From an uncultured Chloroflexia bacterium (GTDB lineage Bacteria; Chloroflexota; Limnocylindria; QHBO01): DNA of 64,000 bases. The stretch covers positions 42,327 through 106,326 of the forward strand of contig CAWIXR010000001.1 in the NCBI GenBank assembly GCA_963840145.1, read 5' to 3'. Each line of letters starts with the position of its first letter. Position 1 is the first letter of the stretch. Positions 46,754-64,000 of this stretch are shown here, one piece after another. Under the pieces are notes generated by a model. The model made no database searches. It was given only the letters and a program-made list of their open reading frames with translations, and was not told the origin of the DNA. The position numbers and the translations under genes are program-made.

Positions 46754-48274
46754 ATGTCCGTCAGGGTAGACGAAGCCCCACAAGAGGGCATCACCGACGA
46801 GGTCGCGACGCCGCTCTCCGGCGAGGCGCGGGGGCGCGCGTCTCCCAGATGGTTCGGGGCTGCGCGCAGCACCCGCACGAGGATCCTGGCCTCCTACGTC
46901 GTCCTTCTCGCTCTATCCGTCATCATCGGCCTGGTCGGTCTCCGCGAGGTCCTGCTGATCAGCCTCAACGACCGCGTCCAGGAGGACCTCGAGCAGGAGG
47001 TCACCGAGCTCGACCGGCTCGCGACCGAAGGCAACGACCCGCAGACCGGCCAGCCCTTCGACAGCCTGGAGCGCGTCTTCGAGGTCTTCCTCTTCCGCAA
47101 CCTGCCTGGCAACGGTGAGGCACTGCTGACGTTCGTCGAGGGCCAGCAAACCGATCGCAACGTCGAGCAGTTCCCGCTCGAGACCTTTCCTGCGGAGCGG
47201 CTGGCCGAGTGGGAAAGCCTGAGCGAGCCCAGCGGTGGCATCAGCCGCGTCGTCGTCGACAGCTACGGCACCGAGATCGGCGACGTCCACTACCACGCGG
47301 CGCGCGTCCGGCTCGGCGACGAGGTCGGCTCGTTCGTCGTCGCCATCCTCCCGGCCAGCGAGCTCGTCGTCATCGAGGAGCTTCAGACCTATGGTCTGCT
47401 GGCAGCGCTCGGCGTCCTCCTCATCAGCTCGATCGCGGCCTACTTCCTGGCTGGGCGGGTCCTGCGGCCGGTGCAGGAGCTGACCGATACCGCACGCTCG
47501 ATCTCCCAGTCCGACCTGACCCGGCGGATCAGCGCGAGCGGGGGTGACGAGGCCTCCGAGATGGCGCGAAGCTTCAACGCGATGCTCGACCGGCTCGAGG
47601 CCGTGATGCGCAGCCAGCGCGAGTTCGTCCACGACGCCAGCCATGAGCTGCGCGACCCGCTCACGATCATCGGCGGCCACCTCGAGCTCCTCAGCGAGGA
47701 GCCGGAGGAACGCGACGCGACGATCGCGCTGGTCGTCGATGAGCTCGACCGAATGGCCCGCATCGTCGACGACCTCCAGCTCCTGGCCGATGCCCAGCAG
47801 CCCGACTTCCTGCGCCCGACGTGGATCGACATGGAGCCGTTCACCAACGAGTTGATCGCCAAGGCCGCGGCGATGGCGCCCCGGACGTGGGAGCTGGACG
47901 GCGCAGCCGATGCCGAGGCGTTCGTCGACCGCCACCGCCTCACCGAGGCAGTCATGAACCTGGTCCACAACGCCGTGCAGCACACCGTCGGGCACGACAC
48001 GATCGCCATCGGCTCGTCGGTGGCCGGCGGCGAGATCCGGCTCTGGGTCCGCGACACCGGCTTCGGCATTGCCGAGTCCGACCAGGCCCGGGTCTTCGAT
48101 CGGTTCCGGCGCGGGCGCAGCGCCCACCGGCGCTACCGCGGCAGCGGCCTCGGCCTGGCGATCGTGCGGACGATCGCCGAGTCCCACAATGGCCACATCG
48201 AGCTGATCAGCAAGCTCGGCGAGGGGTCGACGTTCACGATGGTGCTGCCGGCCCGGGCGGGAGGCGCGAGGTGA
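46754..48274 (+). CDS. two-component sensor histidine kinase (TM sensor, HAMP, HisKA, HATPase_c)
   Basis: MSVRVDEAPQEG… preceded by GAAGGGGGGTGAT. H-box HELRDPLT; N/G-box region …RDTGFGIAESDQARVFDRF…GSGLGLAIV…. Confidence 0.88.
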   Translation: MSVRVDEAPQEGITDEVATPLSGEARGRASPRWFGAARSTRTRILASYVVLLALSVIIGLVGLREVLLISLNDRVQEDLEQEVTELDRLATEGNDPQTGQPFDSLERVFEVFLFRNLPGNGEALLTFVEGQQTDRNVEQFPLETFPAERLAEWESLSEPSGGISRVVVDSYGTEIGDVHYHAARVRLGDEVGSFVVAILPASELVVIEELQTYGLLAALGVLLISSIAAYFLAGRVLRPVQELTDTARSISQSDLTRRISASGGDEASEMARSFNAMLDRLEAVMRSQREFVHDASHELRDPLTIIGGHLELLSEEPEERDATIALVVDELDRMARIVDDLQLLADAQQPDFLRPTWIDMEPFTNELIAKAAAMAPRTWELDGAADAEAFVDRHRLTEAVMNLVHNAVQHTVGHDTIAIGSSVAGGEIRLWVRDTGFGIAESDQARVFDRFRRGRSAHRRYRGSGLGLAIVRTIAESHNGHIELISKLGEGSTFTMVLPARAGGAR

Positions 48275-48930
48275 CGCGCATCCTGATCGCCGAGGACGAC
48301 GGCCTGATCAGCTCGTTCATCGACAAGGGCCTGCGGGCCAGCGGCTTCTCGACGCTGATCGCCAGCGACGGCGAGGAGGCCGAGCAGTACGGGATGACCG
48401 ACGAGTTCGACCTCATCATCCTGGACATGGGCCTCCCCGAGCGCGACGGCCTCCAGGTCCTGAAGTCGCTGCGCGCGCGCGGTAAGCAGATGCCGATCCT
48501 CATCCTCACCGGGCGGCCCGAGCGCGACGTCGTGACCTGCCTCGACGCCGGCGCCGACGACTACATGCGCAAGCCCTTCCGTTTCGAGGAGCTGCTTGCC
48601 CGCGTCCGTACCAGGCTGCGCGACCGCGGCTCGCGAGAGTCGTCGGCCCTGACGGTCGGACAGGTGCACCTCGACCTTCGGACCCGCCGCGTGACGATCG
48701 ACGACCGCGTGGTCGACCTGACCGCCCGCGAGTTCAGCCTGCTCGAGACGCTCCTCCGGCATCCGGACCAGGTTCTGAGCCGGGAGCAGCTGCTATCCCA
48801 GGTGTGGGGCTACTTCTTCGACCCCACCTCGAACCTCGTCAACGTTTACGTCAACGCGCTGCGGCGGAAGCTCGGCGCCGACGTCATCGAGACGGTCCGC
48901 GGCGCGGGGTATCGGCTGCCGAAGCGCTGA
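48271..48930 (+). CDS. OmpR/PhoB-family response regulator
   Basis: VTRILIAEDDGLI…DLIILDMGLPERDG… receiver domain, then a winged-helix domain (…LTAREFSLLETLL…GYRL). GTG start overlaps the HK TGA. Confidence 0.92.
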   Translation: MTRILIAEDDGLISSFIDKGLRASGFSTLIASDGEEAEQYGMTDEFDLIILDMGLPERDGLQVLKSLRARGKQMPILILTGRPERDVVTCLDAGADDYMRKPFRFEELLARVRTRLRDRGSRESSALTVGQVHLDLRTRRVTIDDRVVDLTAREFSLLETLLRHPDQVLSREQLLSQVWGYFFDPTSNLVNVYVNALRRKLGADVIETVRGAGYRLPKR

Positions 48931-49118
48931 TCGGTCCGATCGCGGACGGTGCGCGGACGCACCGTGCCGGAGTTCAATTGTAAGGACGTTCTCACGAAAC
49001 CCTTACCGCTGACTGATGGCGCCCTTACCGAATCCTGATCGCTGACCACGAATGTCAGCGTGTGCTGAAATCATCCTCACCCCGACCCGTCCAGCTGCCG
49101 GACGTCACGCGCATCGGC

Positions 49119-52100
49119 GTGATCGTCCGGGAGCTCCTCCGCCGTGCAGGAACGTCCCCTACCGCGGCACTGGAGGTCGGGGCTGATTCGAGCTGCCTGC
49201 TTTCCGATTGCGGGCGCCCGCTGACTTCGGCTGACGACAGCTACTGCAGCCGAGCCTGTCTGCGGCGCGCGGGTCGCATCGCGCAGGCCGCCGAGCTGGC
49301 GGGACAGAGCTGCGCCAGGGACGGCTGCGAGAACCTCTTCGACGCCCGCACGAGCGGTCACCGCTTCTGCAGCAGCGCGTGTGGGATCGAGGCCCGCCGG
49401 ACCGATCGGGCACCATGGACCCACGGCCTGACGGCCGCCCCCACTCGCCTTCCCGCCAACATCCCAGCCCCCGGCCTCGTCGCCGGGGGCGTTGCACGTC
49501 TCGGCCGCGGCGCGACGCAGGTCGGTGCCGCGATCGCCGCGGGGACGGCCGCCATTGCGCGGCCCATCCGATCGGGCGTCTCGCGCGCCGGCACCGTCCT
49601 CGTTGCGGCCACGCGTCCGGTCCGGGCCGGGGTCAGTCGCGCACTGGGCCCGATTGCCCGGCGCCTCGAGCCGGTGGTGAGCCCGGTGCGCCGGTGGCTC
49701 GGAGCCCTGTACGCCAGGACGGCGCCGGCCAGGGCCGTCATCGGCCGACCACTCAGCCTTGCATGGCGCCGCACACCGCGGCGCGTTCGTGTGCCTGGCG
49801 CCCTTCTCGTCGCGACCGCATCGGTCATGGTGCTCGTGCTCTCCTTCGCGGCCGCGTCGGACTTCACCGTCAACGACACGAGCGACCGCGTCGACGCGGT
49901 CGTCGGCAATGGCGTCTGCGACGTCAACACCAGCACGTCCGGCAGCCAGTGCACCCTGCGCGCCGCCATCCAGGAGGCGAATGCGCACCCCGGCCACGAC
50001 AAGATCACGATCGAGCCGGGCCTCTACCAGCTCGCGATCCCGCCGATCAACGAGAACGCCGCGAACGTCGGCGACTTCGAGCTCCTCGACACGGTGACCA
50101 TCGAGAAGCAATGGTTCACCCTCGGCGACGTCATCATCGACGGCGGCAATCCCCTGCCGAGCGCGCCGGTCATCGCCCGCGGCATCGACCGCCTCTTCGA
50201 GGTCCACCCCGGCGCCGGTGACGTCACCATGCGCGACGTCACCCTCCAGAACGGCTTCAGCCCCGAAGAGGGCGGCGCGATCCAGAACTGGTCGCTCGGC
50301 AAGCTGACCCTCGACGGCGTGACAGTCCGCGACAACTTCGCCGAGAAGGCCGGCGGCGGCCTCAACCATGGCGACCTCAACGACTACGAGTGGGCCACCG
50401 ATCCGCCGAACCTCGACCTGCTGCCCCACGGGCGCGTCGAGGTCATCGACTCGTTCTTCACCGGCAACGGCTCGGCCGGCGGCAGCGGTGCCGCCATCAA
50501 CAACGTGTCGGGCGGCACGATCACGATCACCGGCAGCACGTTCACCCTGAACCCCGGCGCGATCATGCCGGACCCGCTCGACCCTGAGGAGTTCCTCCTC
50601 GTCGACCCGGCCGACTACCCGCTCGACGCCAGCACGATCGCCAACCAGGCCCGCTGGGAGAAGGTCGGCACGCTGCGGATCAGCAACTCGACGATCTCGC
50701 TGAACGCGGCCGAGGGCAACGGCGCCGGCATCCTCAACGAGGGCGACAGCATCGTCGAGCTCGCGAACGTCGTCCTGACCCAGAACCGCACCGGCGCCAG
50801 CGGCGGCGGCCTCTACACCGAGGGCGGCAAGGTCACGATCACCGGCGGCACGGTCTCAAAGAACCAGGCGGCGAACGGCGGCGGCCTCTACGGCGGCGGC
50901 CATGTCTCGCAGTTCGGCCTCCGCGGGACGTTCACGTTGTCGGGCGTCCAGGTCGCCGACAATATCGCCGAGAACGGCGGCGGCCTGTACAACGACGGCG
51001 ACGCCCACATGGTCGTGACCAACACGACCTTCGCGCGCAACCACTCGTCCGACCACGGCGGCGCGCTCGTCAGCGATGGCCGCGCCAGCCTTCTGCTCAG
51101 CCACGTCACGGTCACGGCCAACACCTCGAACGGCGAGGGCGGCGGCATCTGGCTGCACAGCGAGCGGATGCAGACGATCGCCGACTCGACGGTCACGCTC
51201 AACAGGGCGGGCGTCCCGGTCGTCGAGGAGGACGGCACGCTGAGCGACGACATCGCCGGCGGTGGCGGCATCCACACCGATGGCGGCCCGACGACGATCC
51301 TGCGCACCCTCATCGACAGCAACGAGGCGAATGATGAGGGCGGCGGACTCAGCCTCAACAACGCGGGCGACCTCCTGATCGCGGACAGCACGATCTCGAA
51401 CAACCGGGCATTCGACGGCGGCGGCATGGAGAACAGCGCTCGGGAGGTGACCTTCGAGCGGCTCACGGTCACCGGCAACCGTGCGGCCTCGGCCGGCGGC
51501 GGCATCCACAACACCTCGAGCGGCGAGTTCTTCATCCTCGACACGACGGTCCGCGGCAACACCGCCCAGATCGGCGGCGGGCTTGCCAACGCGCCGGACA
51601 ACAGGATCACGATCCGCGGCTCGCTCTTCCTCAATAACACGGCGCGCCTGGGGACGCCCGGCGAGGACGGCGAGCTGCCCGAGGAGGCCGGCTACGGCGG
51701 CGGCATCATGAGCTACGCCGACGGCGACTCGCTCATCGAGAACACCACGATCTCCGGCAACAAGGCCGCGGTGGCCGGCGGCGGCCTGTTCCACGACGCC
51801 GACGGCGAGCTGCGCATCGTGCACACCACGGTCTGGCGCAACTCGGCGCCGGCCGGCGGCGGCATCGGCGTCAAGGAATCCGACTTCGTGCCCGACATCC
51901 CGCCGAAGACGAACGAGGCCGTCGTCCTGAAGAACTCGATCGTCGGCGGCAGCATCCGCGGCGGCAACTGCGACTGGTACATCCGGTCGGAGGGCGGCAA
52001 CCTCGAGAGTGGCGGCGTCAACACCTGCTTCCTGGCCGTCACCCACGAGACGGCGCAGAGCCCGATTGAGCTCGGCGTCCGCGACCGCCGCGGCGACCCG

Positions 52101-55100
52101 AAGCTGCTGGCCATCGCCGACAACGGCGGGCCGACCCTGACCCACGCGCTCCTGTACGGCAGCCTCGCCATCGACTCGAGCCCCGAGCCGTGCTCGGTCG
52201 ACGACCAGCGCGGCGTCGAGCGCCCCGCGCCGAACGACACGGTCCATGACGAGATGAACCGATGCGACGCCGGCGCCTACGAGTTCGTCGGTCCGCCGCC
52301 GCCGTACGACAACGTCGCCCCCGAGACGATCTTCAACTACCCCGAGGACGGTCCTGTCCAGGATTCCCTCGAGACGATGGCGTTCACCTTCCGCGGCGAG
52401 GATCCCGCGGTCGACGCGAACAACGTCCCGGTCAACTTCACCTCGCCCGATGAGCTGAACTTCGAGTGCCGCTTCCTCGAGATCGAGCTGACCGAGGAGC
52501 CCGAGCCCGTTCCGCCGTGGGAGCCGACGCCGCCCGAGGAGATGTGGAACGGCTGCTCGAGCCCGTGGTCCGTGCCGCTGACCGAGGAAGGTCTCTTCCG
52601 CCTGGAGATCCGGGCGATCGACCGCGCCGACAACATGGACGAGACGCCGGTCAGCGTGATCATCAGCGACGTCGGCCTGGAGCCGCCCGACACCCAGATC
52701 GTCGAGGCGCCCGGCCTGACCCCCGGCACCGTCGTGCCGCCCGCTCCGGCGGAGACGCCGCAGACCAACAGCCGCGCCGCACTGTTCAGCTTCCGCGCGG
52801 TGAGCGACTTCACCCCGTCGCAGTTCGCCGAGTACGAGTGCCGCCTCGACAGCCGCGACCCGGAGCAGTGGCTCGAATGCTTCAACCCCGTGATGTACTC
52901 CGACCTGACCACGGGCCTGCACACCTTCGAGGTGCGCGCCATCGGCACCGAGCTCGGCGGCCCCGATCCGACGCCGGCCCGGTACACCTGGCGCGTCGGC
53001 CCGGATCCGGCCGGCGGAGTGCCGTTCAGCTGCGATGAGGCGAACATCACCCTGACGCCCAACGCCGACGGCTGGGCGGACCAGGTCAACCCGCTCGAGA
53101 ACTACAAGTTCGAGACGGAGCTCGACGTCCGGTCCGAGGCCAATGTGCCCGAGTCCGGCCCGACCGAGCACCGGAACGCGCGGGCCTTCATCCGCTTCGC
53201 GCTCCAGGCTGACACCGACTGCGAGCTGCAGTCGGCCACGCTGCGCATGTTCTCCGAGGGCCACACCGAGGGACGAACCCTCGTCGCGGTTCCGCTCGCC
53301 GGGCCGTTCAAGGAGAGCACGCTCACCTGGGTCAGCGCGCCGCTCGAGGTCCCGGGCGCCGTCCCGGCGCCGGTCCCCGCGGGCGAGGGCTATCGCGACT
53401 TCGACGTCACCGACCACGTGAGGGACATCCTCGCCGGCACACTGGTGAACCATGGCTGGCTCATCCGCGACGCGGTGGAGTCCGATCCCGAGGGCGGCGA
53501 CCAGACCTTCGCGTCACGCGAGCTGCCACAGGATCCGCCGGAGATCACCCTGCCTGAGCTCGAGCTGCGCTTCGCGCCGGTCGCAAGCCCGCCGCCGGCC
53601 GAGCGTGACCAGACGCTCGTCGACAAGTACGTCGAGTGCGGTGAGGTCATCACCGAGAGCGTTCGGCTCCTGGGCGACGTGACCGGCTGCCTCACCGAGG
53701 GCATCGCCATCGGCGCCCCGAACATCATCCTCGACCTGAACGGCAAGATCGTCTCGAGCGGCTTCATCCTTGAGCCGGGCGAGGAGGACAACCTCACGCC
53801 GGGCATCCGCAGCGGATACCCGAACGTCGAGATCCGCAACGGCACCGTCACGAACTTCGGCTACGGCATCCTGCTCGGTCCTGGGTCGGTGCACAGCGAA
53901 GTCCACCACATGACCCTGACCCGCAACGCCCTGACCGGCCTGCAGCTGTTCGACGCCGATAACGGGCGCCTCGGCAACACGGTCCGCGACAGCACGTTCG
54001 ACTCGAACGGCGAGACGGGCCTGCAGCTGATGAGCGGCACCGAGGGCAGCCTCATCGAGAACAACTTCTTCATCAGCAACGGGATGTCGATCCACCTCTT
54101 CGACTCCCACCGCAACACGATCCGCAACAACACGATCAGCGGGATCATCCTCGACCCGACCCTCGACTCCGACGCCGGAATCGTGGTCGAGAACGGCTCG
54201 CGCGATAACGTCCTGATCGACAACGACGTCAGCGAAACCGGTGACGCCGGCATTGTCATCCACCAGGGCTCGCACGGGAACACCGTCGTCGGCGGCATCC
54301 TCGTCCGGAACGGCGACGCCGGCGTGATCGTCCAGGATTCGGACCGCATCACGGTCGACGGCGTCCTCGCCCACCAGCAGTCGGACGGCGGCGTCGTGCT
54401 GTCGAACTCGAGCAACAGCGTCGTCAAGAACAGCGACCTGGGCTACAACCCCTCCGGCGTCGACGCATCGGGCGTGAACAACCTGCTCGTCTACAACAAC
54501 GACGTGTCGCACTCGCTCCAGGCCGGCATCGAGCTCGGCGAGGGTGTGAACATGGTCGTCACCTGCAACACGGCCAACCTGAGCGGCGGCAGCGGCATCT
54601 CGATCGAGGGCGCCACGTTCGACTCGCTGGGCGTCGCCGTCGGCGGCGCCCTGGTCACGGGCAACACGGCCAACGAGAACGCCGAGTCCGGCCTCTCGAT
54701 CGCCGTCGGCCGCCACCGGGTCGGTGGTCCGGTCATCTGCCCGGGTGGCGAGGTCATCGGCAACAACGCGAACAACAACGCCGGCTACGGCATCGACGCC
54801 GGCGAGGACCCCGTTCCGGGCGAGCCGCTCGACCCGAACCGCAACATCGACGGCGGCGGGAACCGCGCGAGCGGCAACCACGCCGACGTCGGCGTGGCCG
54901 TCGGCCTGCCGGACGCCATCCAGTGCGTGGGCGTGGTCTGCGCCGCCGGCGACGACGTGCCGATGACGCCTGAGGACCTCACCGCGCCCGAGACGATCCT
55001 TCTCGCCGGCCCGGTCGGCTCGATCCTTCCGCTGCCCGCGGGCGTTTCCACGAACAGCGAGCGCGCCGTCTTCGAGTTCACCGGCAACGACGGCCCGCAG

Positions 55101-58100
55101 GGCGACGCCCCCACCGCGCTCATCTTCGAGTGCCGCGTGGACGCGCCGCCGGATCCGGTGATCATCGAGGAGCCTGAGCTCGAGCCGCCCGATCCGGGCG
55201 AGCCGCCGGAGCTGCCCGAGCCGCCCGAGGGCGAGTTCTGGGTCGCGTGCTCCAGCCCGCTCACCTACCTGGCCCTCGAGTCCTCGATGACGCACACCTT
55301 CGAGGTGCGAGCCGTCGACCAGGCCGGGAACTTCGACCTGACCCCGATCACGTACACGTGGACGATCGAGGCTGGCGTCGAGGAGGACGGCAGCGAGGAG
55401 TGCCTGCTCGGCGAGCCGATCAGCGACACGTGCTCCGTCCTCGGGCAGGCGCCCGACACGCGGATCAGCGCCGCCCCGGGCGAGCTGATCACCGATGAGG
55501 CCGGCACCCGCTACGACACCACGAACCGCTCGGCCACGTTCCGGTTCACCGGCAGCGACAACGTCACCGCCGGGTACAACCTGGCCTACGAGTGCCGCAC
55601 CTGGTACAGCGAGCTCAACGACGCGCTCACGCCGGCGGACATCCCCTCCGACGTCGACTTCGTCCCGTGCGAGTCGCCGAAGCAGTACATCGAGCTTCCA
55701 TACGGCGGCCACATCTTCGAAGTGCGCGCGACCGATCGCGGCGGCAACACCGACGCGGAGCCTGCCTGGCACGCCTGGTGGGTCCATCCCCCGCCGCCCG
55801 ACACGACGCCTCCGGACACGGAGATCCAGTCGGGTCCCGATCCGATCACCGTGCGGACGAACGCCACGTTCACCTTCACGGGAAGCGACAACCAGACGCC
55901 GACCGGCGACCTGCTCTTCGAGTGCCGCCTCGACGGCGCGATGGATCCGCTCGCCCCGGCCGTGCCGCTATGGACCCTGTGCACCTCCGGTCACGTCGTC
56001 AACGGCCTCACCCCGGGCGATCACGTCCTGCAGGTCCGCGCCAAGGACCAGAGCGGCAACGTGGACGACGTCAACGGGCTGGTCGACGCCACCGTGACCC
56101 CTGGGGAGATGGATCCCAGCGACGGCGTGCCCGCCGCCTACACCTGGACGGTCGGCCCGACGCCGATCGCAAGGACGGTCTTCTGCGGCCAGAAGATCAC
56201 GATCAGCATCGTGCTCAACAACAACCTGGGCGATTGCATCGGCCATGGCCTGATCATCGGTGCCAACAACATCACGATCGACCTGAACGGCAAGACGATC
56301 GACGGCAAGTCGATCGGTGCGGCCATCCTGAACAACGGCTACGACTCGGTCACGATCCGCAACGGCCGACTCACCGACTTCGACTACGGCGTCATGCTCA
56401 ACAACGGCGCCCAGAACAACATCGTCGAGGGAATCACCGTCGACCTCGCCCAGGAAGCCGGCATCAGCCTCGGCCACGGCACCTTCCCGGAGGATCCGAC
56501 ACTGGCACCCAGTGAGCCCGTGCCCGGATACCAGTCCGGCGTCGACAACACGATCCTGCGTGGCAACACCATCGTCTCGAACAAGCGCGGCGTGTGGCTG
56601 GTGAACGGTGCCCGCGACAACGTCGTGCGCGGCAACCTCATCGGCGCCACGAGTGGCCCGGCCGTGTTCATCGAGCGCGCCACGGCCACCCTCGTCGAGA
56701 GCAACGACATCCAGGTCTCCAGCGACGCCGGCGTCCTGCTTGAGGGCGCGACCAACAACGTCATCCGCAACAACACGATCGCCGAGGCCGGCACCGGCGT
56801 CGAGATCAGCGACACGACGTCCGGGCCGACGGTCGGCATCGAGTCGAGCGACAACGTCGTCCAGGGCAACCACATCAGCGAGACGAGCGGTGCCGCCGTG
56901 GATATCGTCCACTCGCGCCGCAACCAGATCCTCGACAACGTCGGCACGCTGACGAACTCCGACGCGATCGAGCTGTTCTACGGGTTCGACAACGTGATCA
57001 AGGGCAACGACGTCCGTGGCAACAAGGGCGGCATCAGCCTGAAGAACTCGACCGGCAACACGATCGAGGCCAACAACACCAGCAACTCGGATGGGACGGG
57101 AATCTCGCTCGAGTCGCAGTCGTTCGCCAACGTGATCGTCAACAACATCTCGAACAACAACGTCGGCGGCGGCATCTACATCGGTGACGAGACGCCGGCC
57201 GGCCAGGGAACCCTCGTCCAAGGCAACACCACGAACGGGAACAAGGAAGCCGGCATCAAGGCAACGAAGCCGGCCCACATCTTCAAGGACAACGTCTCGT
57301 TCGACAACGACAGCTGGGGCATCTACGTCGGCGACCCGTCGAACGGGCGCGCCAACATCGACGGCGGCGGCAACCGCGCGCAGGGCAACCTCGGCCCACT
57401 CGGCATCGACCTGAAGCCGCAGCAGTGCTACAACATCACCTGCCTCGGCGGCGAGGGCGGCGGCGACGGGATCCCGCCGAACACGAACATCCTCGAGGGA
57501 CCGATCCAGCCTGTCAGCAGCGAGAGCCTCGCCACCTTCCGCTTCAGCGGCGCCGACAACGCCAGCCCGGTTACCTTCGAGTGCCGCTTTGACAGCGCCC
57601 TCGAGACCGCCTGGGAGGCCTGCGCCAGCCCGAAGACCTACACGAACCTCGTCAACGACACGTACACCTTCGAGGTGCGCGCCGTCGACTTCTCCGGCAA
57701 CACCGATGAGACGCCCGCCAGCTACACGTTCGCCGTGGAGCTTGGCGACTTCGAGGCCTTCATCGACGCGAGCCCGGACAGGGCGACCGTCGAGACGAGC
57801 GCGACCTTCGAGTTCTCGTCCAACCGCCAGAGCGGTGTCACCTTCCAGTGCCTGCTCGTCGACCCGCTGACCGTCCTCACGACGGCGACGTGGGCTGCAG
57901 CGCCTGTCTGCACCTCACCGATCAGCTACACCGATCTCGCGGTCGGCGGCCACGAGTTCTGGCTGCGCGCGACCGGTCCGTCGGACGCCTACAGCACGAA
58001 GATGTACGCCTGGACCATCGGTCCTGCGCCCGTCCCGGCCGAGGTCTCGTGCGGCCAGGTCCTCATGCAGAGCACGCGCGTGCTCAACGACCTCGTCGAC

Positions 58101-61100
58101 TGCGGCGGCTACGCCCTGATCGTCGGCGCGCCCGGCATCACGATCGACCTCGACGGGCACGTCCTCGACGGCCTCGGGCTCGACGCCGGCGTCCTGAACA
58201 ACGGGCATGACGACGTCACGATCAAGAACGGGCTCATCACCCAGTTCCTGTACGGCGTCCAGCTCAACGCGGGCACCGCGCGCAACGTCGTGCACTCGCT
58301 GCGGCTCGAGGCGAACGAGGAGGCGGCGATCGCCCTCTCCGACGCCGACCAGGGCGCCGACGGCAACCTGATCCGCGACAACTCGATCGTCGGCAACGAG
58401 GTCGGCATCGCCCTCTACACCGGGACGCGGCACGCCGTGATCCGCAACAACGACCTGGGCGCCAACCAGGGCGAGGGCGGCATCTATCTCGAGTTCGCCA
58501 GCGACAACCTCATCGAGCACAACGAGATCTCGATGAGCGGCGGCGGCGGCATCTTCATGATCGGCGGCGGCAACAACGTCGTCACCGACAACGTGCTCAA
58601 GGAGAACGGCGGCTACGGGATCGTGGCCGGCGAGGAGCTGCTGCCCTCCAACAACAACCTCATCCAGCGCAACGAGGTCGAGGGCGGCCAGGGCGGCGTC
58701 CTCGTCGGCGGCAACAACAACACCGTCATCAACAACTCGATCACCGGCGTGACGGGCCCCGGCGTCGCCGTCGAGCTCGCCAACAACACCCTGGTCAAGG
58801 GCAACGACTTCATGGGCAGCGCCGGCGGCGTCTCGGTCGGCGAGGCGAACGGCACGACGATCGTCGCCAACAACGCCAGCGGCACGCTGGGCGCGGGCAT
58901 CGAGATCGGCGAGCTGTCGCTCGACACGATCGTCCGCGACAACACGGCCAGCGGTAACGGCGGCGCCGGCATCGAGATCACCGAGTCCTCCGTCCTCGAT
59001 CGCGGCTCGCTCGTCGAGAACAACACGGCCGACGCCAACGGCGGCGACGGCATCTACGTCGAGGGCGCCGGTCACCGCGTCGTGAACAACGAGGCCAAGC
59101 TGAACGGCGGATGGGGCATCTACTCCGTCGGCGCCGTCGATGGCGGAGGCAACCTCGCCGCGGGCAACATGGAGCCCGAGCAGTGCTTCGGCATCGTCTG
59201 CGAGCTCGGCACGGTCCCCGGCGCTCCGGAGACCTGGATCATCGCCAAGCCGGCCGACTGGAACGCGGGCGTCGAGGGCGTCCAGAGCCCGAGCCGCAAC
59301 GTCAGCTTCACGTACATGGCCTCGGACGACTTCTCGCCGATCACCGACATCGTCTTCGAGTGCCGTCTCGACAACGACAACCCGCTCGCGTGGGAGGACT
59401 GCGAGTACCCCGCCGAGTACCTGAACCTCGGTCCGGGCACCCACAAGTTCGAGGTCCGCGCGATCGACATGCTGGGCCAGGGCCTGGCCGATCCCACGCC
59501 GGCCGTGTTCGAGTGGGCGTACGAGCCGCTGCCGAGCGGCGTCGCGCCCGAGGTGACGATCGACGTCACCCCGGTCGACACCGACCCGCTGAAGCCCGGC
59601 GTGCAGACGTGGATGGTCGACTCGATCTTCACCTTCTCCGCGAACGAGCCCGACGTCACCTTCCAGTGCAAGGTCGACGCGAACGGCTACGAGCCGTGCG
59701 GGTTCGAGGCGGCGCAGTTCATGAACCAGGGCGCCTTCGAGTGGGGCCTGAACGAGACCGAGGTCGGGAACCACACCTTCTTCGTCCGCGCCATCGACTT
59801 CGAGGGCAACGTCAGCGCGCCTGAGACCTTCGTCTGGGAGCTGCTCGGCGTCAACGTCGTCTTCACGAGCGGCCCGGGCTTCACCCCGGCCACCGGCGGC
59901 CCGGCGGGCGACCCCGCCACCGGCGGCATGACCTCCAGCACCTCGGCGATGATCGAGTTCGAGGCCAACGTCGGCGACGCGACCTTCTGGTGCCGGTTCG
60001 ACAGCATCGATCCGGGCGGGTACTTCCCGTGCGAGTCGCCGTTCCTGGCCGGGCCGGCCTTCGCCGCCCAGACGGAGTTCCCGGAGCCGCTGCTGGCCGG
60101 CGACCACACCCTCGAGGTGTACGGCGAGTCCGAGCTCTACGGCTCGGCGGCCGAGCTCGAGCCCGCGATCTACGAGTGGGAGGTCGTCGACCCGGTTGAC
60201 GGCAGCCCGCCCAACACGACGATCGAGCGCGCCCCGGCGGGCCAGGTCACCAACCCGGACAACACGCTGAGCTCCACGACGTTCGAGTTCGTCGGTCTCG
60301 ACGACCTCACGCCGGACTTCCTGCTCCTGTTCGAGTGCCAGGTCACCAACGGCACCGAGCTGCCCAACGAGCTCGAGTGGATCGAGTGCACGAGCCCGTT
60401 CAACCTGCTCGACGTCTACTCGTACGCCGATCCGCAGATGGCAATCGGCGTGGAGCACACCTTCTGGGTGCGCGCCGTCGATACCTTCGAGCCGGAGTTC
60501 CCGGATCCGACGCAGCCCGAGTTCGAGGGCAACCCCGATCCGACCCCGGACTTCCACACCTGGACGCCGATCGCCGACACGCGCGGCCCGATCACCACGA
60601 TCTCCGCCGGACCGGCGAATGGCGCCACCGTCGGTGAGGAGGTCGAGCCGTACATGTTCTTCGGCCTCGACGACGCGACCCCGCTGCACCTGCTCACGTT
60701 CGAGTGCCAGGCCTACGTCACGGCGGCCGGCCCCGACCCGCAGGGCTGGGAGACGTGCGAGACCACGGTCGACAGCGGCTGGGAGCTCAGCGTGCCTGAG
60801 CCGGGCGCCTACACCGTCGCGATCCGCGCCACCGACATGGCCAACAACGTGGGCATCGCCGCCACGCGACTCGTGACCGTCGCGGCCGCCCCCGTCGTGA
60901 CCTTCATCACCGGCCCGGCCGGCCGGCTCGATCCGGTCTCCGGCGAGCCCGACGGCGCCAGCCAGACCGAGAACGCGGTCTTCACCTTCACCTCAGACCA
61001 GCCCGGCTCGACGTTCGAGTGCTCCTTCGAGGGCGACTTCCTGCCCTGCGGCGGCCTCAGCGACCCGGCGACGGGCGCGGCATGGGTCGTCGAGACCGGC

Positions 61101-64000
61101 GAGAACGAGTTCATCGTTCGCGCGACGAACCCGCAGGGCATCGTCGGCGAGGAGGCGGTCTACGCCTGGCTGACCGAGCTCGGTCCCGACGTCGTCGAGC
61201 CCAACTCGAGCTTCACGTTCGGGCCCGAGAGCGGCACGCTGTTGCAGGAGGCGACCTTCGTCTTCAGCGGCACCGACAACCGGACGCCGGCGGGCGACCT
61301 GAGCTTCGAGTGCGCGCTCGACTCCACGACCGCGTGGAACTCGTGCACCTCGCCCGAGATGTTCAGCGACCTGACCCGCGGCTCCCACACGCTCCGCCTG
61401 CGCGCGGTCGACGCGGCCGGCAACATCGAGTCCACCCCGGATACGTACACCTGGGTCGTGGCACCGCCGCCGGTGGCGACGATCCTGTCCGGGCCTGGCG
61501 TCGACATCGAAGAGACGCAGGACCGCGACGCCACGTTCACGTTCAGCTCGGACGTGCCCGGCTCGACCTTCCATTGCTGGCTCGACGGCAAGTACAACCC
61601 CGGCACGCCTGGCGGCGTCCTGGGCACCGAGCCGCTGCCGTGCACCTCTCCGATCACCTACGAGAACCTCGGCTACGGCGAGCACCTGTTCGCGGTCATC
61701 GCAATCGATCCGTTCGGCAACATGGGCCTGGAGTGGGAGGATGCCGAGTTCATCGTGACCCCGCCGGATGCCCGGATCCTCTCCGCGCCGGCAAGCGGCA
61801 CGACCACGACCGCGGTGTTCGAGTTCACCAGCGAACCGTTCGAGGCCGATTCGGTCTTCTACTGCTCGCTCGACGATCGGCCCTTCGGCCTCTGCACGGC
61901 CGAGCCGGTCGCCGGCCAGCCGGGCGTCTACCGCAAGACGTACACGAACCTGCACCCGGGTGAGCACGTCTTCCAGGTCCAGACCCTCTTCACCGGCCTC
62001 GACTGGATGGGTCTGCCCTTCGAGTTCGAGCCGATCCCCGCGATGCACACCTGGACGGTGCAGGACTTCACCGATCCGGACACGGCCATCGACTTCGGCC
62101 CACCGGCCACGACGCTCAGCACGAGCGCCTACCTGATGGTCAGCTCCGACGACCCGACCGCGACGATCGAGTGCGAGCTGACCGGTCCCACGGGCACCGA
62201 GTCCGGCGAGTGCGAGCCCGGCGTGGTGACCGAGTTCACCGACCTCGTGCCAGGCGACTACACGTTCAGCGCGGTCGCCACCGACCTCTCCGGCAACGTC
62301 GACGAGACCCCAGCGACCCATTCGTGGACGATCCAGGTCGCCGGCGCCCCGAACACCAACGTCGGCGAGAACGTGATCGTCACGATCGGGAACGTCAGCG
62401 TCTCCTTCTTCAGCGTCGACACGGCCGGCACCACGATCGCCGATCGCATCTTCGCGGGCCCGCCGCTGCCCGAGGGCTACGCCGGCGCCAGCACGCACAT
62501 CTACGACATCCAGACCTCGGCCGAGTACTCGGAGCCGATCAACATCTGCATCAGCTACGACCCGGCCGACTTCGAGGGTGCACAGTCTCTGCGCCTGCTC
62601 CAGTTCGATAGCGAGCTGTGGATCGACGTCACGACCCTCCACAACCCGTTCGTGTCGCCGGCCCGCATCTGCAGCAACATCGCCGAGGACTTCGGGCTCT
62701 TCGCGATCGCGATCGCCTCGACCGGCTCGGCGCCGGAAACCTCGATCTTCTCCGGTCCGGAGGGTCCGCTCGGGCCTGAGGGCGTGCCCACCTCGACCAG
62801 CGGCTCGGCGACGTTCGAGTTCTGGACCGATCAGCCCAACGCGATCACGCAGTGCTCGCTCGACGGCGATCCGTGGTTCTACTGCGAGTCGCCGCTGACC
62901 GTCGGCCCGCTCGAGGAGGGCGGCCACGAGTTCTGGGTCCAGGCGATCAACGAGTTCGGCTGGATGGACCTGACGCCTGCCATCTTCGAGTGGGAGGTTC
63001 TCGGGCCCGACGTCACCCCGCCGACGACGATCATCACCGGCGGCCCGCCGGAGGGCTCGTCCACCCCGAACTTCATCAGCATGTTCACCTTCAGCGGCGC
63101 CGATGACATGACGCCGTCCCTCGAGCTCGACTTCGAGTGCACGCTCGACGGCGTGAACCTGGGCGGCTGCGATCCGCTCCTCGAAGAGATCGAGGTGGAG
63201 ACCCCTGGCCCGCACCAGCTCATCGTTCAGGCGATCGATGCCGCGGACAACATGGACCCGGTCGGCGCCATCCGGAACTGGACCGTCATCGACATGTCAG
63301 GTCCCGACACGGAGATCATCCTCGGTCCTGAGGAGGAGACGACCGAGACGAGCGCCACGTTCGAGTTCGAGGGCTTCGAGCTCCTGAACGACCTGCCCGT
63401 CAACGAGTTCGAGTGCGCCCTGGACGACGGCGAGTTCACGCCGTGCACCACCCCGCACGTCATCCCCGGCCCGCTGGGCGGCGGCGTGCACGTCTTCCAC
63501 GTTCGCGCGGTCGATCCCGACGGCAACCGCGACATCTCGCCGGCCTTCTACGAGTGGCTGATCCTCGGCCCCGAGGACACCACGCCGCCGGAGACCTTCA
63601 TCCACGTGTTCCCGGATCAGGCCAACTCCGGCCCGGACGTCATCTTCGGCTTCGCCAGCAATGAGCCGGTCGAGAGCTTCGAGTGCGCGTACGGCGACGG
63701 CCCGCCGCCGGCAGAGATGCCGACGCAGTGGGAAGAGTGCGATGTCGTCTGGGTGCTCGAGGCGCTCGATTCCGGCCCGCACTGGCTGTGGGTCCGTGCC
63801 CTCGACGTCGCCGAGATCCCGAATGTCGATCCGACGCCCGCCGGCGCAAGCCGTGGCTTCCCGGCCGGCAGCGTCGACACCGCACCGTTCGTGTGGGTCA
63901 CGACCGGCGAGCCCGAGACCTTCATCGACGATGGTCCGGACGACCCGACGGGCGCCTACACCGCGACCTTCCACTTCCACTCCGACCAGGCCGACGCGAC
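49119..64000 (+). CDS. Giant multi-modular surface protein, partial (frame 0 open from the stop at 49014-49016 to beyond the window end; >4,900 aa here). The start is uncertain: in-frame GTGs at 49062, 49119 or 49791.
   Basis: No frame-0 stop anywhere from 49017 to 64000; frame continuity checked at 49863, 52461, 55125 and 63408. Consistent sense-strand homology-like motifs throughout. The ORF track omits it because it has no stop in the window. Confidence 0.8.
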   Translation, partial: MIVRELLRRAGTSPTAALEVGADSSCLLSDCGRPLTSADDSYCSRACLRRAGRIAQAAELAGQSCARDGCENLFDARTSGHRFCSSACGIEARRTDRAPWTHGLTAAPTRLPANIPAPGLVAGGVARLGRGATQVGAAIAAGTAAIARPIRSGVSRAGTVLVAATRPVRAGVSRALGPIARRLEPVVSPVRRWLGALYARTAPARAVIGRPLSLAWRRTPRRVRVPGALLVATASVMVLVLSFAAASDFTVNDTSDRVDAVVGNGVCDVNTSTSGSQCTLRAAIQEANAHPGHDKITIEPGLYQLAIPPINENAANVGDFELLDTVTIEKQWFTLGDVIIDGGNPLPSAPVIARGIDRLFEVHPGAGDVTMRDVTLQNGFSPEEGGAIQNWSLGKLTLDGVTVRDNFAEKAGGGLNHGDLNDYEWATDPPNLDLLPHGRVEVIDSFFTGNGSAGGSGAAINNVSGGTITITGSTFTLNPGAIMPDPLDPEEFLLVDPADYPLDASTIANQARWEKVGTLRISNSTISLNAAEGNGAGILNEGDSIVELANVVLTQNRTGASGGGLYTEGGKVTITGGTVSKNQAANGGGLYGGGHVSQFGLRGTFTLSGVQVADNIAENGGGLYNDGDAHMVVTNTTFARNHSSDHGGALVSDGRASLLLSHVTVTANTSNGEGGGIWLHSERMQTIADSTVTLNRAGVPVVEEDGTLSDDIAGGGGIHTDGGPTTILRTLIDSNEANDEGGGLSLNNAGDLLIADSTISNNRAFDGGGMENSAREVTFERLTVTGNRAASAGGGIHNTSSGEFFILDTTVRGNTAQIGGGLANAPDNRITIRGSLFLNNTARLGTPGEDGELPEEAGYGGGIMSYADGDSLIENTTISGNKAAVAGGGLFHDADGELRIVHTTVWRNSAPAGGGIGVKESDFVPDIPPKTNEAVVLKNSIVGGSIRGGNCDWYIRSEGGNLESGGVNTCFLAVTHETAQSPIELGVRDRRGDPKLLAIADNGGPTLTHALLYGSLAIDSSPEPCSVDDQRGVERPAPNDTVHDEMNRCDAGAYEFVGPPPPYDNVAPETIFNYPEDGPVQDSLETMAFTFRGEDPAVDANNVPVNFTSPDELNFECRFLEIELTEEPEPVPPWEPTPPEEMWNGCSSPWSVPLTEEGLFRLEIRAIDRADNMDETPVSVIISDVGLEPPDTQIVEAPGLTPGTVVPPAPAETPQTNSRAALFSFRAVSDFTPSQFAEYECRLDSRDPEQWLECFNPVMYSDLTTGLHTFEVRAIGTELGGPDPTPARYTWRVGPDPAGGVPFSCDEANITLTPNADGWADQVNPLENYKFETELDVRSEANVPESGPTEHRNARAFIRFALQADTDCELQSATLRMFSEGHTEGRTLVAVPLAGPFKESTLTWVSAPLEVPGAVPAPVPAGEGYRDFDVTDHVRDILAGTLVNHGWLIRDAVESDPEGGDQTFASRELPQDPPEITLPELELRFAPVASPPPAERDQTLVDKYVECGEVITESVRLLGDVTGCLTEGIAIGAPNIILDLNGKIVSSGFILEPGEEDNLTPGIRSGYPNVEIRNGTVTNFGYGILLGPGSVHSEVHHMTLTRNALTGLQLFDADNGRLGNTVRDSTFDSNGETGLQLMSGTEGSLIENNFFISNGMSIHLFDSHRNTIRNNTISGIILDPTLDSDAGIVVENGSRDNVLIDNDVSETGDAGIVIHQGSHGNTVVGGILVRNGDAGVIVQDSDRITVDGVLAHQQSDGGVVLSNSSNSVVKNSDLGYNPSGVDASGVNNLLVYNNDVSHSLQAGIELGEGVNMVVTCNTANLSGGSGISIEGATFDSLGVAVGGALVTGNTANENAESGLSIAVGRHRVGGPVICPGGEVIGNNANNNAGYGIDAGEDPVPGEPLDPNRNIDGGGNRASGNHADVGVAVGLPDAIQCVGVVCAAGDDVPMTPEDLTAPETILLAGPVGSILPLPAGVSTNSERAVFEFTGNDGPQGDAPTALIFECRVDAPPDPVIIEEPELEPPDPGEPPELPEPPEGEFWVACSSPLTYLALESSMTHTFEVRAVDQAGNFDLTPITYTWTIEAGVEEDGSEECLLGEPISDTCSVLGQAPDTRISAAPGELITDEAGTRYDTTNRSATFRFTGSDNVTAGYNLAYECRTWYSELNDALTPADIPSDVDFVPCESPKQYIELPYGGHIFEVRATDRGGNTDAEPAWHAWWVHPPPPDTTPPDTEIQSGPDPITVRTNATFTFTGSDNQTPTGDLLFECRLDGAMDPLAPAVPLWTLCTSGHVVNGLTPGDHVLQVRAKDQSGNVDDVNGLVDATVTPGEMDPSDGVPAAYTWTVGPTPIARTVFCGQKITISIVLNNNLGDCIGHGLIIGANNITIDLNGKTIDGKSIGAAILNNGYDSVTIRNGRLTDFDYGVMLNNGAQNNIVEGITVDLAQEAGISLGHGTFPEDPTLAPSEPVPGYQSGVDNTILRGNTIVSNKRGVWLVNGARDNVVRGNLIGATSGPAVFIERATATLVESNDIQVSSDAGVLLEGATNNVIRNNTIAEAGTGVEISDTTSGPTVGIESSDNVVQGNHISETSGAAVDIVHSRRNQILDNVGTLTNSDAIELFYGFDNVIKGNDVRGNKGGISLKNSTGNTIEANNTSNSDGTGISLESQSFANVIVNNISNNNVGGGIYIGDETPAGQGTLVQGNTTNGNKEAGIKATKPAHIFKDNVSFDNDSWGIYVGDPSNGRANIDGGGNRAQGNLGPLGIDLKPQQCYNITCLGGEGGGDGIPPNTNILEGPIQPVSSESLATFRFSGADNASPVTFECRFDSALETAWEACASPKTYTNLVNDTYTFEVRAVDFSGNTDETPASYTFAVELGDFEAFIDASPDRATVETSATFEFSSNRQSGVTFQCLLVDPLTVLTTATWAAAPVCTSPISYTDLAVGGHEFWLRATGPSDAYSTKMYAWTIGPAPVPAEVSCGQVLMQSTRVLNDLVDCGGYALIVGAPGITIDLDGHVLDGLGLDAGVLNNGHDDVTIKNGLITQFLYGVQLNAGTARNVVHSLRLEANEEAAIALSDADQGADGNLIRDNSIVGNEVGIALYTGTRHAVIRNNDLGANQGEGGIYLEFASDNLIEHNEISMSGGGGIFMIGGGNNVVTDNVLKENGGYGIVAGEELLPSNNNLIQRNEVEGGQGGVLVGGNNNTVINNSITGVTGPGVAVELANNTLVKGNDFMGSAGGVSVGEANGTTIVANNASGTLGAGIEIGELSLDTIVRDNTASGNGGAGIEITESSVLDRGSLVENNTADANGGDGIYVEGAGHRVVNNEAKLNGGWGIYSVGAVDGGGNLAAGNMEPEQCFGIVCELGTVPGAPETWIIAKPADWNAGVEGVQSPSRNVSFTYMASDDFSPITDIVFECRLDNDNPLAWEDCEYPAEYLNLGPGTHKFEVRAIDMLGQGLADPTPAVFEWAYEPLPSGVAPEVTIDVTPVDTDPLKPGVQTWMVDSIFTFSANEPDVTFQCKVDANGYEPCGFEAAQFMNQGAFEWGLNETEVGNHTFFVRAIDFEGNVSAPETFVWELLGVNVVFTSGPGFTPATGGPAGDPATGGMTSSTSAMIEFEANVGDATFWCRFDSIDPGGYFPCESPFLAGPAFAAQTEFPEPLLAGDHTLEVYGESELYGSAAELEPAIYEWEVVDPVDGSPPNTTIERAPAGQVTNPDNTLSSTTFEFVGLDDLTPDFLLLFECQVTNGTELPNELEWIECTSPFNLLDVYSYADPQMAIGVEHTFWVRAVDTFEPEFPDPTQPEFEGNPDPTPDFHTWTPIADTRGPITTISAGPANGATVGEEVEPYMFFGLDDATPLHLLTFECQAYVTAAGPDPQGWETCETTVDSGWELSVPEPGAYTVAIRATDMANNVGIAATRLVTVAAAPVVTFITGPAGRLDPVSGEPDGASQTENAVFTFTSDQPGSTFECSFEGDFLPCGGLSDPATGAAWVVETGENEFIVRATNPQGIVGEEAVYAWLTELGPDVVEPNSSFTFGPESGTLLQEATFVFSGTDNRTPAGDLSFECALDSTTAWNSCTSPEMFSDLTRGSHTLRLRAVDAAGNIESTPDTYTWVVAPPPVATILSGPGVDIEETQDRDATFTFSSDVPGSTFHCWLDGKYNPGTPGGVLGTEPLPCTSPITYENLGYGEHLFAVIAIDPFGNMGLEWEDAEFIVTPPDARILSAPASGTTTTAVFEFTSEPFEADSVFYCSLDDRPFGLCTAEPVAGQPGVYRKTYTNLHPGEHVFQVQTLFTGLDWMGLPFEFEPIPAMHTWTVQDFTDPDTAIDFGPPATTLSTSAYLMVSSDDPTATIECELTGPTGTESGECEPGVVTEFTDLVPGDYTFSAVATDLSGNVDETPATHSWTIQVAGAPNTNVGENVIVTIGNVSVSFFSVDTAGTTIADRIFAGPPLPEGYAGASTHIYDIQTSAEYSEPINICISYDPADFEGAQSLRLLQFDSELWIDVTTLHNPFVSPARICSNIAEDFGLFAIAIASTGSAPETSIFSGPEGPLGPEGVPTSTSGSATFEFWTDQPNAITQCSLDGDPWFYCESPLTVGPLEEGGHEFWVQAINEFGWMDLTPAIFEWEVLGPDVTPPTTIITGGPPEGSSTPNFISMFTFSGADDMTPSLELDFECTLDGVNLGGCDPLLEEIEVETPGPHQLIVQAIDAADNMDPVGAIRNWTVIDMSGPDTEIILGPEEETTETSATFEFEGFELLNDLPVNEFECALDDGEFTPCTTPHVIPGPLGGGVHVFHVRAVDPDGNRDISPAFYEWLILGPEDTTPPETFIHVFPDQANSGPDVIFGFASNEPVESFECAYGDGPPPAEMPTQWEECDVVWVLEALDSGPHWLWVRALDVAEIPNVDPTPAGASRGFPAGSVDTAPFVWVTTGEPETFIDDGPDDPTGAYTATFHFHSDQADA
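49209..49380 (+). other. Giant protein N-terminal cytoplasmic module: two YacG-like zinc-ribbon repeats (C-x4-C…YCSRAC and C-x3-C…FCSSAC)
   Basis: Frame-0 translation: …CLLSDCGRPLTSADDSYCSRACLRRAGRIAQAAELAGQSCARDGCENLFDARTSGHRFCSSACGIEARR…. Confidence 0.5.
49791..49862 (+). other. Giant protein single TM / signal-anchor segment, preceded by a ~130-aa Ala/Arg/Gly-rich low-complexity linker (49440-49790)
   Basis: …WRRTPRRVRVPGALLVATASVMVLVLSFAAASDFTVNDTS…. Confidence 0.55.
49863..52290 (+). other. Giant protein module 1: ~800-aa right-handed beta-helix with Pmp-like GGG(L/I) repeats. It has choice-of-anchor-Q-like boundaries (N-terminal G-x-C-T-L-R-A-A-I-x-E-A-N; C-terminal DQRGVERP…CDAGAYEF).
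   Basis: About 14 GGGL/GGGI turns (AGGGLNHGD, GGGLYTEGG, NGGGLYGGG, GGGIWLHS, GGGGIHTDG, GGGLSLNN, GGGMENS, GGGIHNTS, GGGLANAP, GGGIMSYA, GGGLFHDA, GGGIGVKE…). Confidence 0.65.
53630..54960 (+). other. Giant protein NosD-like parallel beta-helix block A (PbH1 repeats)
   Basis: Entry motif VECGEVITESVRLLGDVTGC…IILDLNGKIV…NVEIRNGTVTNFGYGILL. Exit cap NIDGGGNRASGNHADVGVAV…IQCVGVVCA. Confidence 0.65.
56180..57470 (+). other. Giant protein NosD-like parallel beta-helix block B
   Basis: VFCGQKITISIVLNNNLGDCIGHGLIIGANNITIDLNGKTIDG…VTIRNGRLTDFDYGVML. Exit cap NIDGGGNRAQGNLGPLGIDLKPQQCYNITCLGG. Confidence 0.65.
58040..59215 (+). other. Giant protein NosD-like parallel beta-helix block C
   Basis: VSCGQVLMQSTRVLNDLVDCGGYALIVGAPGITIDLDGHVLDG…VTIKNGLITQFLYGVQL. 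Exit cap VDGGGNLAAGNMEPEQCFGIVCELG. Confidence 0.65.
59220..64000 (+). repeat. Tandem array (>14 copies here; further copies at 52330-53010, 54960-56150 and 57470-58020) of an ~85-aa two-cysteine module with signature (A/V)(T/V)FxF(S/T)x(S/N)D…(F/L)EC(R/x)(L/V)D…(W/F)xxC(T/S)SP…LxxGxHxFxVRA(I/V)DxAGNxDxTPAxYxWxV
   Basis: Protein-level repeats read in frame 0. Examples: ATFRFSGADNASPVTFECRFDSALETAWEACASPKTYTNLVNDTYTFEVRAVDFSGNTDETPASYTF (57510-57740) and ATFEFEGFELLNDLPVNEFECALDDGEFTPCTTPHVIPGPLGGGVHVFHVRAVDPDGNRDISPAFYEWLI (63350-63570). Confidence 0.7.

Follow-up and report, generated by a model that had tools for sequence, protein, structure and literature searches.

Within a 64,000-nucleotide stretch of DNA from an uncultured Chloroflexia bacterium (contig CAWIXR010000001.1; the whole stretch is called the window here), positions 59220-64000 encode a tandem protein repeat with two conserved cysteines per unit. 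This locus raises the question of whether the repeat is a new kind of domain and what it does in the protein that carries it. The original prediction, made from the sequence alone, described a novel Ig-like repeat of more than 20 sequential copies of about 85 residues. We found that the module shares demonstrable homology with Ig-like families that already have names and that it does not represent a new kind of domain. It is probable that the modules are FN3-type Ig-like domains of ~75-100 residues with one Cys pair each, most likely serving as disulfide-stapled spacers in a giant surface protein.

The repeat was first placed in its gene. One frame of the + strand is free of stop codons from 49017 to the window end at 64000, a length of 4,994 codons, and the gene is truncated there. 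The window has a G+C content of ~70%, and the third-position G+C (GC3) of this frame is 0.95 from 49827 onward, so the frame is clearly coding. Because it is open across the whole region, the array sits inside one giant, truncated + strand gene. This gene, for a secreted or surface protein, was placed at 49674..64000 (+) from the open frame that begins at 49017, the GC3, the Pfam and NCBIfam domains, and the starts of orthologues. Two long antisense frames, at 57915-60689 (- strand, 924 residues) and 60993-63215 (- strand, 740 residues), were rejected as genes and judged to be high-GC by-products, since it is the + frame that has the GC3 of 0.95, the homologues, and a confident fold.

To count the modules, two hidden Markov models (HMMs) were used. 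HMM 1 was iterated from six seed modules of the window, and HMM 2 was built independently from 125 diverse modules, all from other proteins. HMM 1 found 21 full modules in the giant open reading frame (ORF). HMM 2 recovered the same 21 plus a partial 22nd, with i-Evalues for the full modules of 2.5e-8 to 3.7e-27. A profile of the window modules (A1) and a profile of 60 foreign modules (A3) matched each other with a probability of 99.8% in a profile-profile comparison. The region 59220-64000 contains 14 full modules and the partial one, and the other 7 lie upstream, among beta-helix domains. The expected count of more than 20 copies therefore holds for the whole ORF in the window but not for the region itself. 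The copies are also not strictly sequential, being separated by beta-helix domains, a CBM96/DNRLRE domain, and a 143-residue domain at 62337-62765.

The consensus of the modules is xxIxxGP...AxFxFxxxD...FECxLD...WxxCxSP...LxxGxHxFxVRAxDxxGNxDxxPAxxxWxV. The predicted signature was right as a consensus, but its core is not invariant: HxFxVRAxDxAGNxDxTPA occurs in 0 of the 21 modules, HxFxVRA in 7, and FEC in 12. Only the columns of the two Cys are invariant in the module alignment. The dimensions given in the original prediction did not hold either. The repeat period in 59220-64000 is 90-123 residues (module cores, 69-106 residues) and not ~85, and the second Cys follows 8-38 residues after the first (median, 12) and not 20-25. 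At the DNA level the copies have diverged, with a codon-aligned nucleotide identity of 38-61% (mean, 50%) and an amino acid identity of 17-45%, and Tandem Repeats Finder (TRF) reported nothing at the module period. Short exact repeats do recur: TTCGAGTGC is found 12 times, against 0.56 expected by chance, always on the + strand within the giant ORF and always encoding FEC. These data agree with the earlier description of DNA-level divergence with short exact repeats, and the two HMMs, the open frame, and the GC3 establish a diverged tandem protein repeat in an open + frame across 59220-64000.

The fold of the module was predicted with AlphaFold2 for the copy at 61203-61469, using the 21 modules as alignment input. 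The model had a predicted local distance difference test (pLDDT) score of 97.6 and strands at residues 2-6, 17-23, 34-39, 46-48, 52-54, 60-69, and 80-86. In the model, these seven strands, A-B-C-C'-E-F-G, lie in two sheets, the arrangement by which the FN3 (s-type) Ig fold is recognized, and the predicted structure is an FN3-type Ig-like seven-strand sandwich. The proposal of an Ig-like unit is thereby borne out. Foldseek ranked 4a2m, 4a2l, and 3ott at the top (TM, 0.71). Of the solved structures, the Y_Y_Y domain comes closest in fold, and the model shares its fold with the solved Y_Y_Y domains (4a2l, 3ott, and 3v9f).

The two Cys occupy one hairpin of this model, with C37 in strand C (34-39) and C48 in strand C' (46-48). 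Judged from the secondary-structure string, which leaves a six-residue turn between the strands, they would be directly opposite each other. The canonical Ig disulfide, an inter-sheet bond between strands B and F, was rejected because both Cys are in strands C and C'; the predicted disulfide would be an intra-sheet staple of the C-C' hairpin. We surveyed the Cys pair in 2,588 near-full-length modules from 270 homologous proteins. Both Cys were present in 2,555 modules (99%), neither in 31, and a single one in 2, whereas independent loss would give ~0.4 joint losses. Since the two Cys are conserved together and lost together, one predicted disulfide per module is strongly indicated by the sequences, as was originally proposed. 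Joint loss in 31 modules versus single loss in 2 is the classic mark that a disulfide leaves in sequence data, and it predicts that the giants depend on extracytoplasmic oxidative folding.

Module length varies mostly between the two Cys. The Cys-Cys loop has 9 residues in 79% of the family, whereas module 3 of the window has a loop of 38 residues. Inside this loop, at 55181-55229 (+), is a 9-nt micro-repeat (CGAGCCGCC, 5.4 copies) that encodes a Pro/Glu-rich expansion. Three polar positions are conserved among family modules: the D after FECxL (~90%), the D in RAxD (89%), and the N in GN (82%).

To place the module among known families, the whole protein was compared with the curated domain models. 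It scored 123.1 bits against NCBIfam NF047446 (OmpL47-type beta-barrel domain; cutoff, 40; E 4.7e-36), with 3 stretches, and six homologues also pass this model with 90-342 bits. Summed over the protein, the scores were 49.2 bits for Pfam Y_Y_Y (PF07495; cutoff, 26.6) and 41.6 bits for Pfam Big_13 (PF19077; cutoff, 27), with no single stretch passing in either case. When modules were scanned one by one against Pfam and NCBIfam, 0 of the 21 window modules and 0 of 4 canonical modules from relatives reached any curated cutoff. The best single module scored 31 bits against NF047446, 4 of the 21 had E <= 0.01, and the four canonical modules of the relatives scored 22.6-25.9 bits; the significant single-module matches to this model had E values of 1e-5 to 3e-7. 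Single-module maxima were 22.5 bits for Big_13 and 16.3 bits for Y_Y_Y. The Pfam alignments took in only the GxHxFxVRAxDxAGN segment, which makes up the final third of the module; in Big_13 this segment corresponds to positions ~69-102 of 102.

The profiles were also compared with solved structures. Profile A3 matched SiiE (2yn3_A) with an E value of 2e-10 and 43.9 bits over the C-terminal half only (profile positions 43-83), and it matched the FN3-like module of a chitinase (6bt9) with an E value of 1.5e-4 over nearly its full length (positions 12-81); its match to 4a2l was not significant (E 0.92). A search of PDB sequences with A1 returned weak summed matches to titin FN3 domains only (4a2l, E 0.66). 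The precomputed Pfam annotation of homologues is most often Big_13, and ten homologues fall in clusters with only generic names, for example "parallel beta-helix repeat protein" or "MYXO-CTERM domain-containing protein." Literature searches on the module motifs and on related family names found no paper describing this module, and neither a paper nor a solved structure was found for the two-Cys subfamily.

A new fold or family, unrelated to known Ig-like domains, would be consistent with the failure of every single module to pass a Pfam or NCBIfam cutoff and with a motif that the literature searches found in no paper. We consider it very improbable, because the whole protein passes NF047446, single modules match that model significantly, and the family profile matches SiiE. 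The modules are in one broad group with the OmpL47-type (NF047446), SiiE-type Big_13, and Y_Y_Y domains, and they form a two-Cys subfamily without a dedicated model, since no single module reaches a curated cutoff. NCBI rules would name the giant protein after the OmpL47-type domain. In the giant protein, there was no Pfam match to PKD, HYR, Cadherin, Calx-beta, or Big_2, and the sole match in the Big_3 group was to Big_3_2, below threshold (E 0.0026; 18.4 bits versus a cutoff of 23.3). The original prediction was thus correct in setting the module apart from these families, with Big_3_2 the one sub-threshold match, but its claim of novelty fails on the NF047446 pass, the whole-protein scores for Y_Y_Y and Big_13, the SiiE match, and the Y_Y_Y domain as the closest fold. 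Assignment to an existing named domain, which it had regarded as decisive against a new repeat, is found for the whole protein through NF047446 and for no single module.

The name of NF047446 also suggests that the modules might be membrane-spanning beta-barrel segments, as was first predicted for OmpL47, which was chosen in 2009 as a predicted transmembrane outer membrane protein (PMC2698987). OmpL47 itself, however, was found entirely in the aqueous phase (PMC2698987). The module model is a soluble seven-strand sandwich, and this predicted structure contradicts a transmembrane beta-barrel. The closest relatives that we found are actinobacteria, which are not known to have an outer membrane of the Gram-negative type. 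We give the beta-barrel explanation practically no credence.

To determine how widely the module occurs, the window profile was scanned against 1.84 billion representative proteins. It matched 39,647 of them at 1e-3, 22,411 at 1e-10, and 6,743 at 1e-30, with up to 47 module copies in some matching proteins. Matches with a named source include Actinomycetota, Deltaproteobacteria, Corallococcus, Thaumarchaeota, and Candidatus Xenobia. The module is thus very common in giant surface proteins of actinobacteria, myxobacteria, and other organisms, yet as a domain it mostly escapes Pfam annotation, in which its C-terminal third alone is recognized, as Big_13 or Y_Y_Y. With a dedicated model made from the present alignments, tens of thousands of proteins could be annotated. 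The overall importance of the finding is modest, and it opens no long-standing question.

Orthologous giants of 4,200-6,200 residues share the architecture of the window protein. They were found in Nocardioides gansuensis and Jiangella aurantiaca, with 36 modules each in the retrieved part of the locus, and also in Actinomycetota, Thermoleophilaceae, and Chloroflexia metagenome-assembled genomes. In a scan of genome contigs, the best loci had an identity of 76% in the best segment. Window modules 2-21 have positional orthologues in Nocardioides and Jiangella, in strictly the same order and with 55-86% identity; the retrieved sequence of these loci starts downstream of module 1. Paralogous modules, in contrast, are 30-50% identical. 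Because positional orthologues are more alike than paralogues, the array either had differentiated before these lineages split or moved between them whole. Horizontal transfer of the whole giant gene might account for the module-by-module collinearity of the window with the Nocardioides and Jiangella genes. Assembly collapse and recent expansion were excluded by the divergence of the copies together with the positional orthology, and the original prediction of an old array was upheld.

The orthologues also indicate how the protein ends. Their C-terminal end has the order module-DNRLRE-module-module-DNRLRE and lies ~1,700 residues past the point where the window ends, so the window's protein probably has ~6,500 residues in full. 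No sorting signal was obvious at the C-terminal ends of the orthologues. Gene content downstream of the orthologues is not conserved, and thus it points to no partner system.

The order of domains along the giant protein was read from the translation together with the Pfam and NCBIfam scans; all features that follow are on the + strand. The protein is of the extracytoplasmic type and has an export signal; its N terminus has a basic stretch and then a hydrophobic helix (ALLVATASVMVLVLSFAAA). This helix is followed by a CSLREA-like N-terminal motif (~49863-49982; CSLREA_Nterm, 8e-4) and by beta-helix domain 1 (49914..52286, approximate; Beta_helix and para_beta_helix matches) with a choice-of-anchor Q domain (~52095-52286; choice_anch_Q, 1.9e-16). 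Two modules come next, and both were found with the HMMs: module 1 (52365..52661) has a long Cys-Cys loop of 28 residues, and module 2 (52767..53000) is 86% identical to its positional orthologue in N. gansuensis and J. aurantiaca. They are followed by the CBM96/DNRLRE domain (53046..53549; PF24517, 3.5e-13; NF033679, 1.1e-14) and beta-helix domain 2 (53634..54986, approximate; translation and scans). Then come module 3 (55053..55370; HMM), with its Pro/Glu-rich loop, module 4 (55521..55787), and module 5 (55851..56156), which has an insertion after the GN motif. Beta-helix domain 3 (56184..57506, approximate; translation and scans) precedes modules 6 (57519..57740) and 7 (57789..58022), and beta-helix domain 4 (58044..59216, approximate) contains the best Beta_helix and NosD stretches.

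The long module run begins exactly at 59220, the start of the region in question. Ten consecutive modules, 8-17, occupy 59289..62336. Modules 8-12 are at 59289-59525, 59613-59846, 59934-60188, 60264-60572, and 60633-60884, and modules 13-17 are at 60963-61178, 61239-61463, 61518-61760, 61800-62063, and 62112-62336. After the unrelated domain at 62337..62765, the run continues with modules 18-21 (62796-63002, 63072-63290, 63342-63566, and 63627-63851) and with partial module 22 (63897..64000; residues 4961-4994; i-Evalue, 8e-5), which is cut by the window end. Modules 4-21 were found with both HMMs. The non-repeat domains of the protein thus include at least four parallel beta-helices of the NosD/pectate-lyase-like type and one CBM96/DNRLRE domain. 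CBM96 is reported to be an alginate-binding family (PMC9971899), and Big_13 domains make up the stalks of rod-like surface proteins (PMC9704523).

We infer a disulfide in each module, a rod-like spacer role, and a polysaccharide target. After export, the Cys of FEC (strand C) and that of CxSP (strand C') would most likely pair as a disulfide, which would hold the C-C' hairpin together and close the loop of variable length. The modules would then be oxidation-stabilized, protease-resistant spacers, with the beta-helix and CBM domains strung between them along an extended stalk that keeps these domains at a distance from the cell. It would be the beta-helix and CBM domains, and not the modules, that engage extracellular polysaccharide or matrix. 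At the C-terminal pole of each module would be the variable C-C' loop, and at its N-terminal pole the conserved DxAGNxD loop, so that both loops would face module junctions. Several points weigh against this explanation. No module passes a cutoff by itself, and the family assignment draws instead on the summed scores, on profile matches, and on the fold. The spacer role is proposed on architectural grounds and by analogy, and the C terminus and any anchoring signal of the window's protein fall outside the window. Finally, the conserved D, D, and N positions could point to metal or ligand binding and not to a purely passive spacer.

Two alternatives, which do not exclude the spacer role or each other, follow from the loop and from these polar positions. 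In the first, the modules themselves are adhesive or ligand binding, with the disulfide-closed C-C' loop as the specificity determinant, as in FN3-scaffold loop binders. The loop is particularly diversified in this protein, where it ranges from 8 to 38 residues against a family mode of 9, and the conservation of individual modules between species, at 55-86%, suggests module-specific constraints. The namesake OmpL47 shows weak binding to laminin, fibrinogen, fibronectin, collagen III, and elastin; according to its authors, who did not follow it up, this binding was much below that of OmpL37 (PMC2935396). The long loops of the window are Pro/Glu-rich and of low complexity, and one of them contains the 9-nt micro-repeat, all of which is more suggestive of a tolerated insertion than of a site for binding. 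The protein also has dedicated binding-type domains already, in its beta-helices and CBM96. We regard loop-mediated binding as unlikely.

In the second alternative, the modules are Ca2+-stabilized repeats like the Ig domains of SiiE or the cadherins, and acidic residues bind Ca2+ at the junctions and stiffen the stalk. The candidate sites are the D of FECxLD at the C-terminal pole of one module and DxAGNxD at the N-terminal pole of the next, an arrangement compatible with the disulfide. The C-terminal half of the module is the part that matches SiiE (2yn3), the D, D, and N are conserved at 82-90%, and there are weak matches to N-cadherin at positions 63-79. Weak matches to NF033510 ("Ca2+-stabilized repeat adhesin") fall on the segment that matches SiiE; their sums reach 117 bits in homologues, and one window module scores 18 bits, although no single module ever reaches the cutoff of that model. 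The VxAxDxxGN segment, moreover, also occurs in Y_Y_Y and FN3-like domains, for which no Ca2+ requirement is known. Ca2+-stiffened junctions are, in our estimate, somewhat unlikely, slightly less so than binding by the loops, and disulfide-stapled spacers are the reading that we prefer.

The domain that interrupts the long run is a more intriguing lead than the module itself. A 228-residue gap between modules 17 and 18 contains a separate, all-beta domain of 143 residues (62337-62765) that had no match in Pfam or NCBIfam, including ZU5 and GPS. It is kept in ~30 copies, one or two per orthologous giant, with two invariant Cys. Its model (pLDDT, 85.5) has a ZU5-like beta-sandwich fold, and this predicted fold is of the class known for autoproteolysis (ZU5, GAIN-GPS, FIIND, and Nup98 autopeptidase). 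Zhang et al. described ZU5-superfamily domains in large bacterial surface proteins with adhesion modules and glycohydrolases and gave HFS, HL|T, or CxH as the autoproteolytic motifs before the last strand (PMC3482391). The window copy has DFGLFAIA at this place, which offers no Ser, Thr, or Cys as a nucleophile. Many homologous copies have SLSPFAVA or SFSPFALA there. The first of these resembles the GAIN domain site HL|TxFAVLM. We hypothesize that sister copies of the insert might cleave themselves; the lack of a nucleophile in the window copy limits this hypothesis to them. A broader proposal, which is possible but in our judgment more doubtful than not, is that the FECxLD...CxSP module is a distinct and very large E-set subfamily, that its C-C' disulfide loop is diversified here and possibly acts as a binding or junction element, and that the ZU5/GAIN-like insert might self-cleave the giant.

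The start of the gene was considered in light of the orthologues. Two of them start opposite residues ~203-271 of the giant frame. Since full-length homologues begin there, the true start is probably somewhere between GTG 49674 and ATG 49827, with a candidate just upstream of the signal/anchor helix. The preceding stretch, 49017-49673 (+), is in frame with the giant ORF with no stop between them, and it encodes two (Y/F)CSxAC Cys motifs (..DSYCSRAC.. and ..HRFCSSAC..) that resemble zinc-ribbon elements. Its GC3 is 0.72-0.84, versus 0.95 in the gene, and the orthologues begin downstream of it. This stretch may be an N-terminal cytoplasmic extension or open noncoding sequence.

Other genes were seen in the window. 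Directly upstream of the giant gene and on the same strand is a histidine kinase (HAMP, HisKA, and HATPase_c) at 46679-48274 (+), and after it comes an ORF at ~48270-48930 (+) whose C-terminal part, judged by eye, resembles an OmpR-type response regulator. In Nocardioides, a kinase-like ORF is found downstream of the orthologue, on the opposite strand. Farther upstream, a ParA (AAA_31/CbiA) and ParB (ParB_N and HTH_ParB) gene pair at 41681-43565 (+) adjoins genes for a carboxyl transferase (39999-41816, -) and a methylmalonyl-CoA mutase (36397-38124, -).

The best window module aligns to positions 4-61 of 68 in NF047446, the OmpL47-type domain, which includes both Cys and the HxFxVRA core, although at 31 bits or less, single modules stay below its cutoff of 40. 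Leptospira interrogans OmpL47 (LIC13050) and the present protein both carry small beta domains in tandem in a surface protein, but the former is a 39-kDa spirochaete protein and the latter an actinobacterial-type giant of 5,000-6,000 residues. For OmpL47, experiments have shown only that it is exposed at the surface, partitions into the aqueous phase, and binds several matrix proteins weakly (PMC2698987, PMC2935396). The Y_Y_Y domain, which is the closest in fold, shares 15-18% sequence identity with the present modules. In hybrid two-component sensors of Bacteroides (BT4663, 4a2l; BT4673, 3ott; BT3049, 3v9f), this Ig-like domain comes after the twin beta-propellers and occurs as a single copy in a periplasmic sensor, whereas the present modules are in tandem between beta-helix domains and there is no propeller.

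FN3-like modules of glycoside hydrolases, such as Clostridium thermocellum CbhA (3pe9) and Bacillus thuringiensis ChiA74 (6bt9), differ in that the Cys pair is particular to the present subfamily; Pfam fn3 has no match here. Big_13 in SiiE, the giant Salmonella adhesin (2yn3), resembles the present modules in forming long tandem arrays in a giant surface protein, but the Big_13 match leaves out the N-terminal half of the module, which contains the FEC...C pair. Periscope proteins likewise have tandem Ig-like domains as a presumed surface stalk, and their repeats keep a high DNA identity and vary in number (PMC9704523). Length variation of the periscope type was rejected for the present array, which has no near-identical DNA repeats. 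Unlike periscope repeats, its modules are 38-61% identical in nucleotide sequence and invisible to TRF at the module period, and their number and order are conserved between genera.

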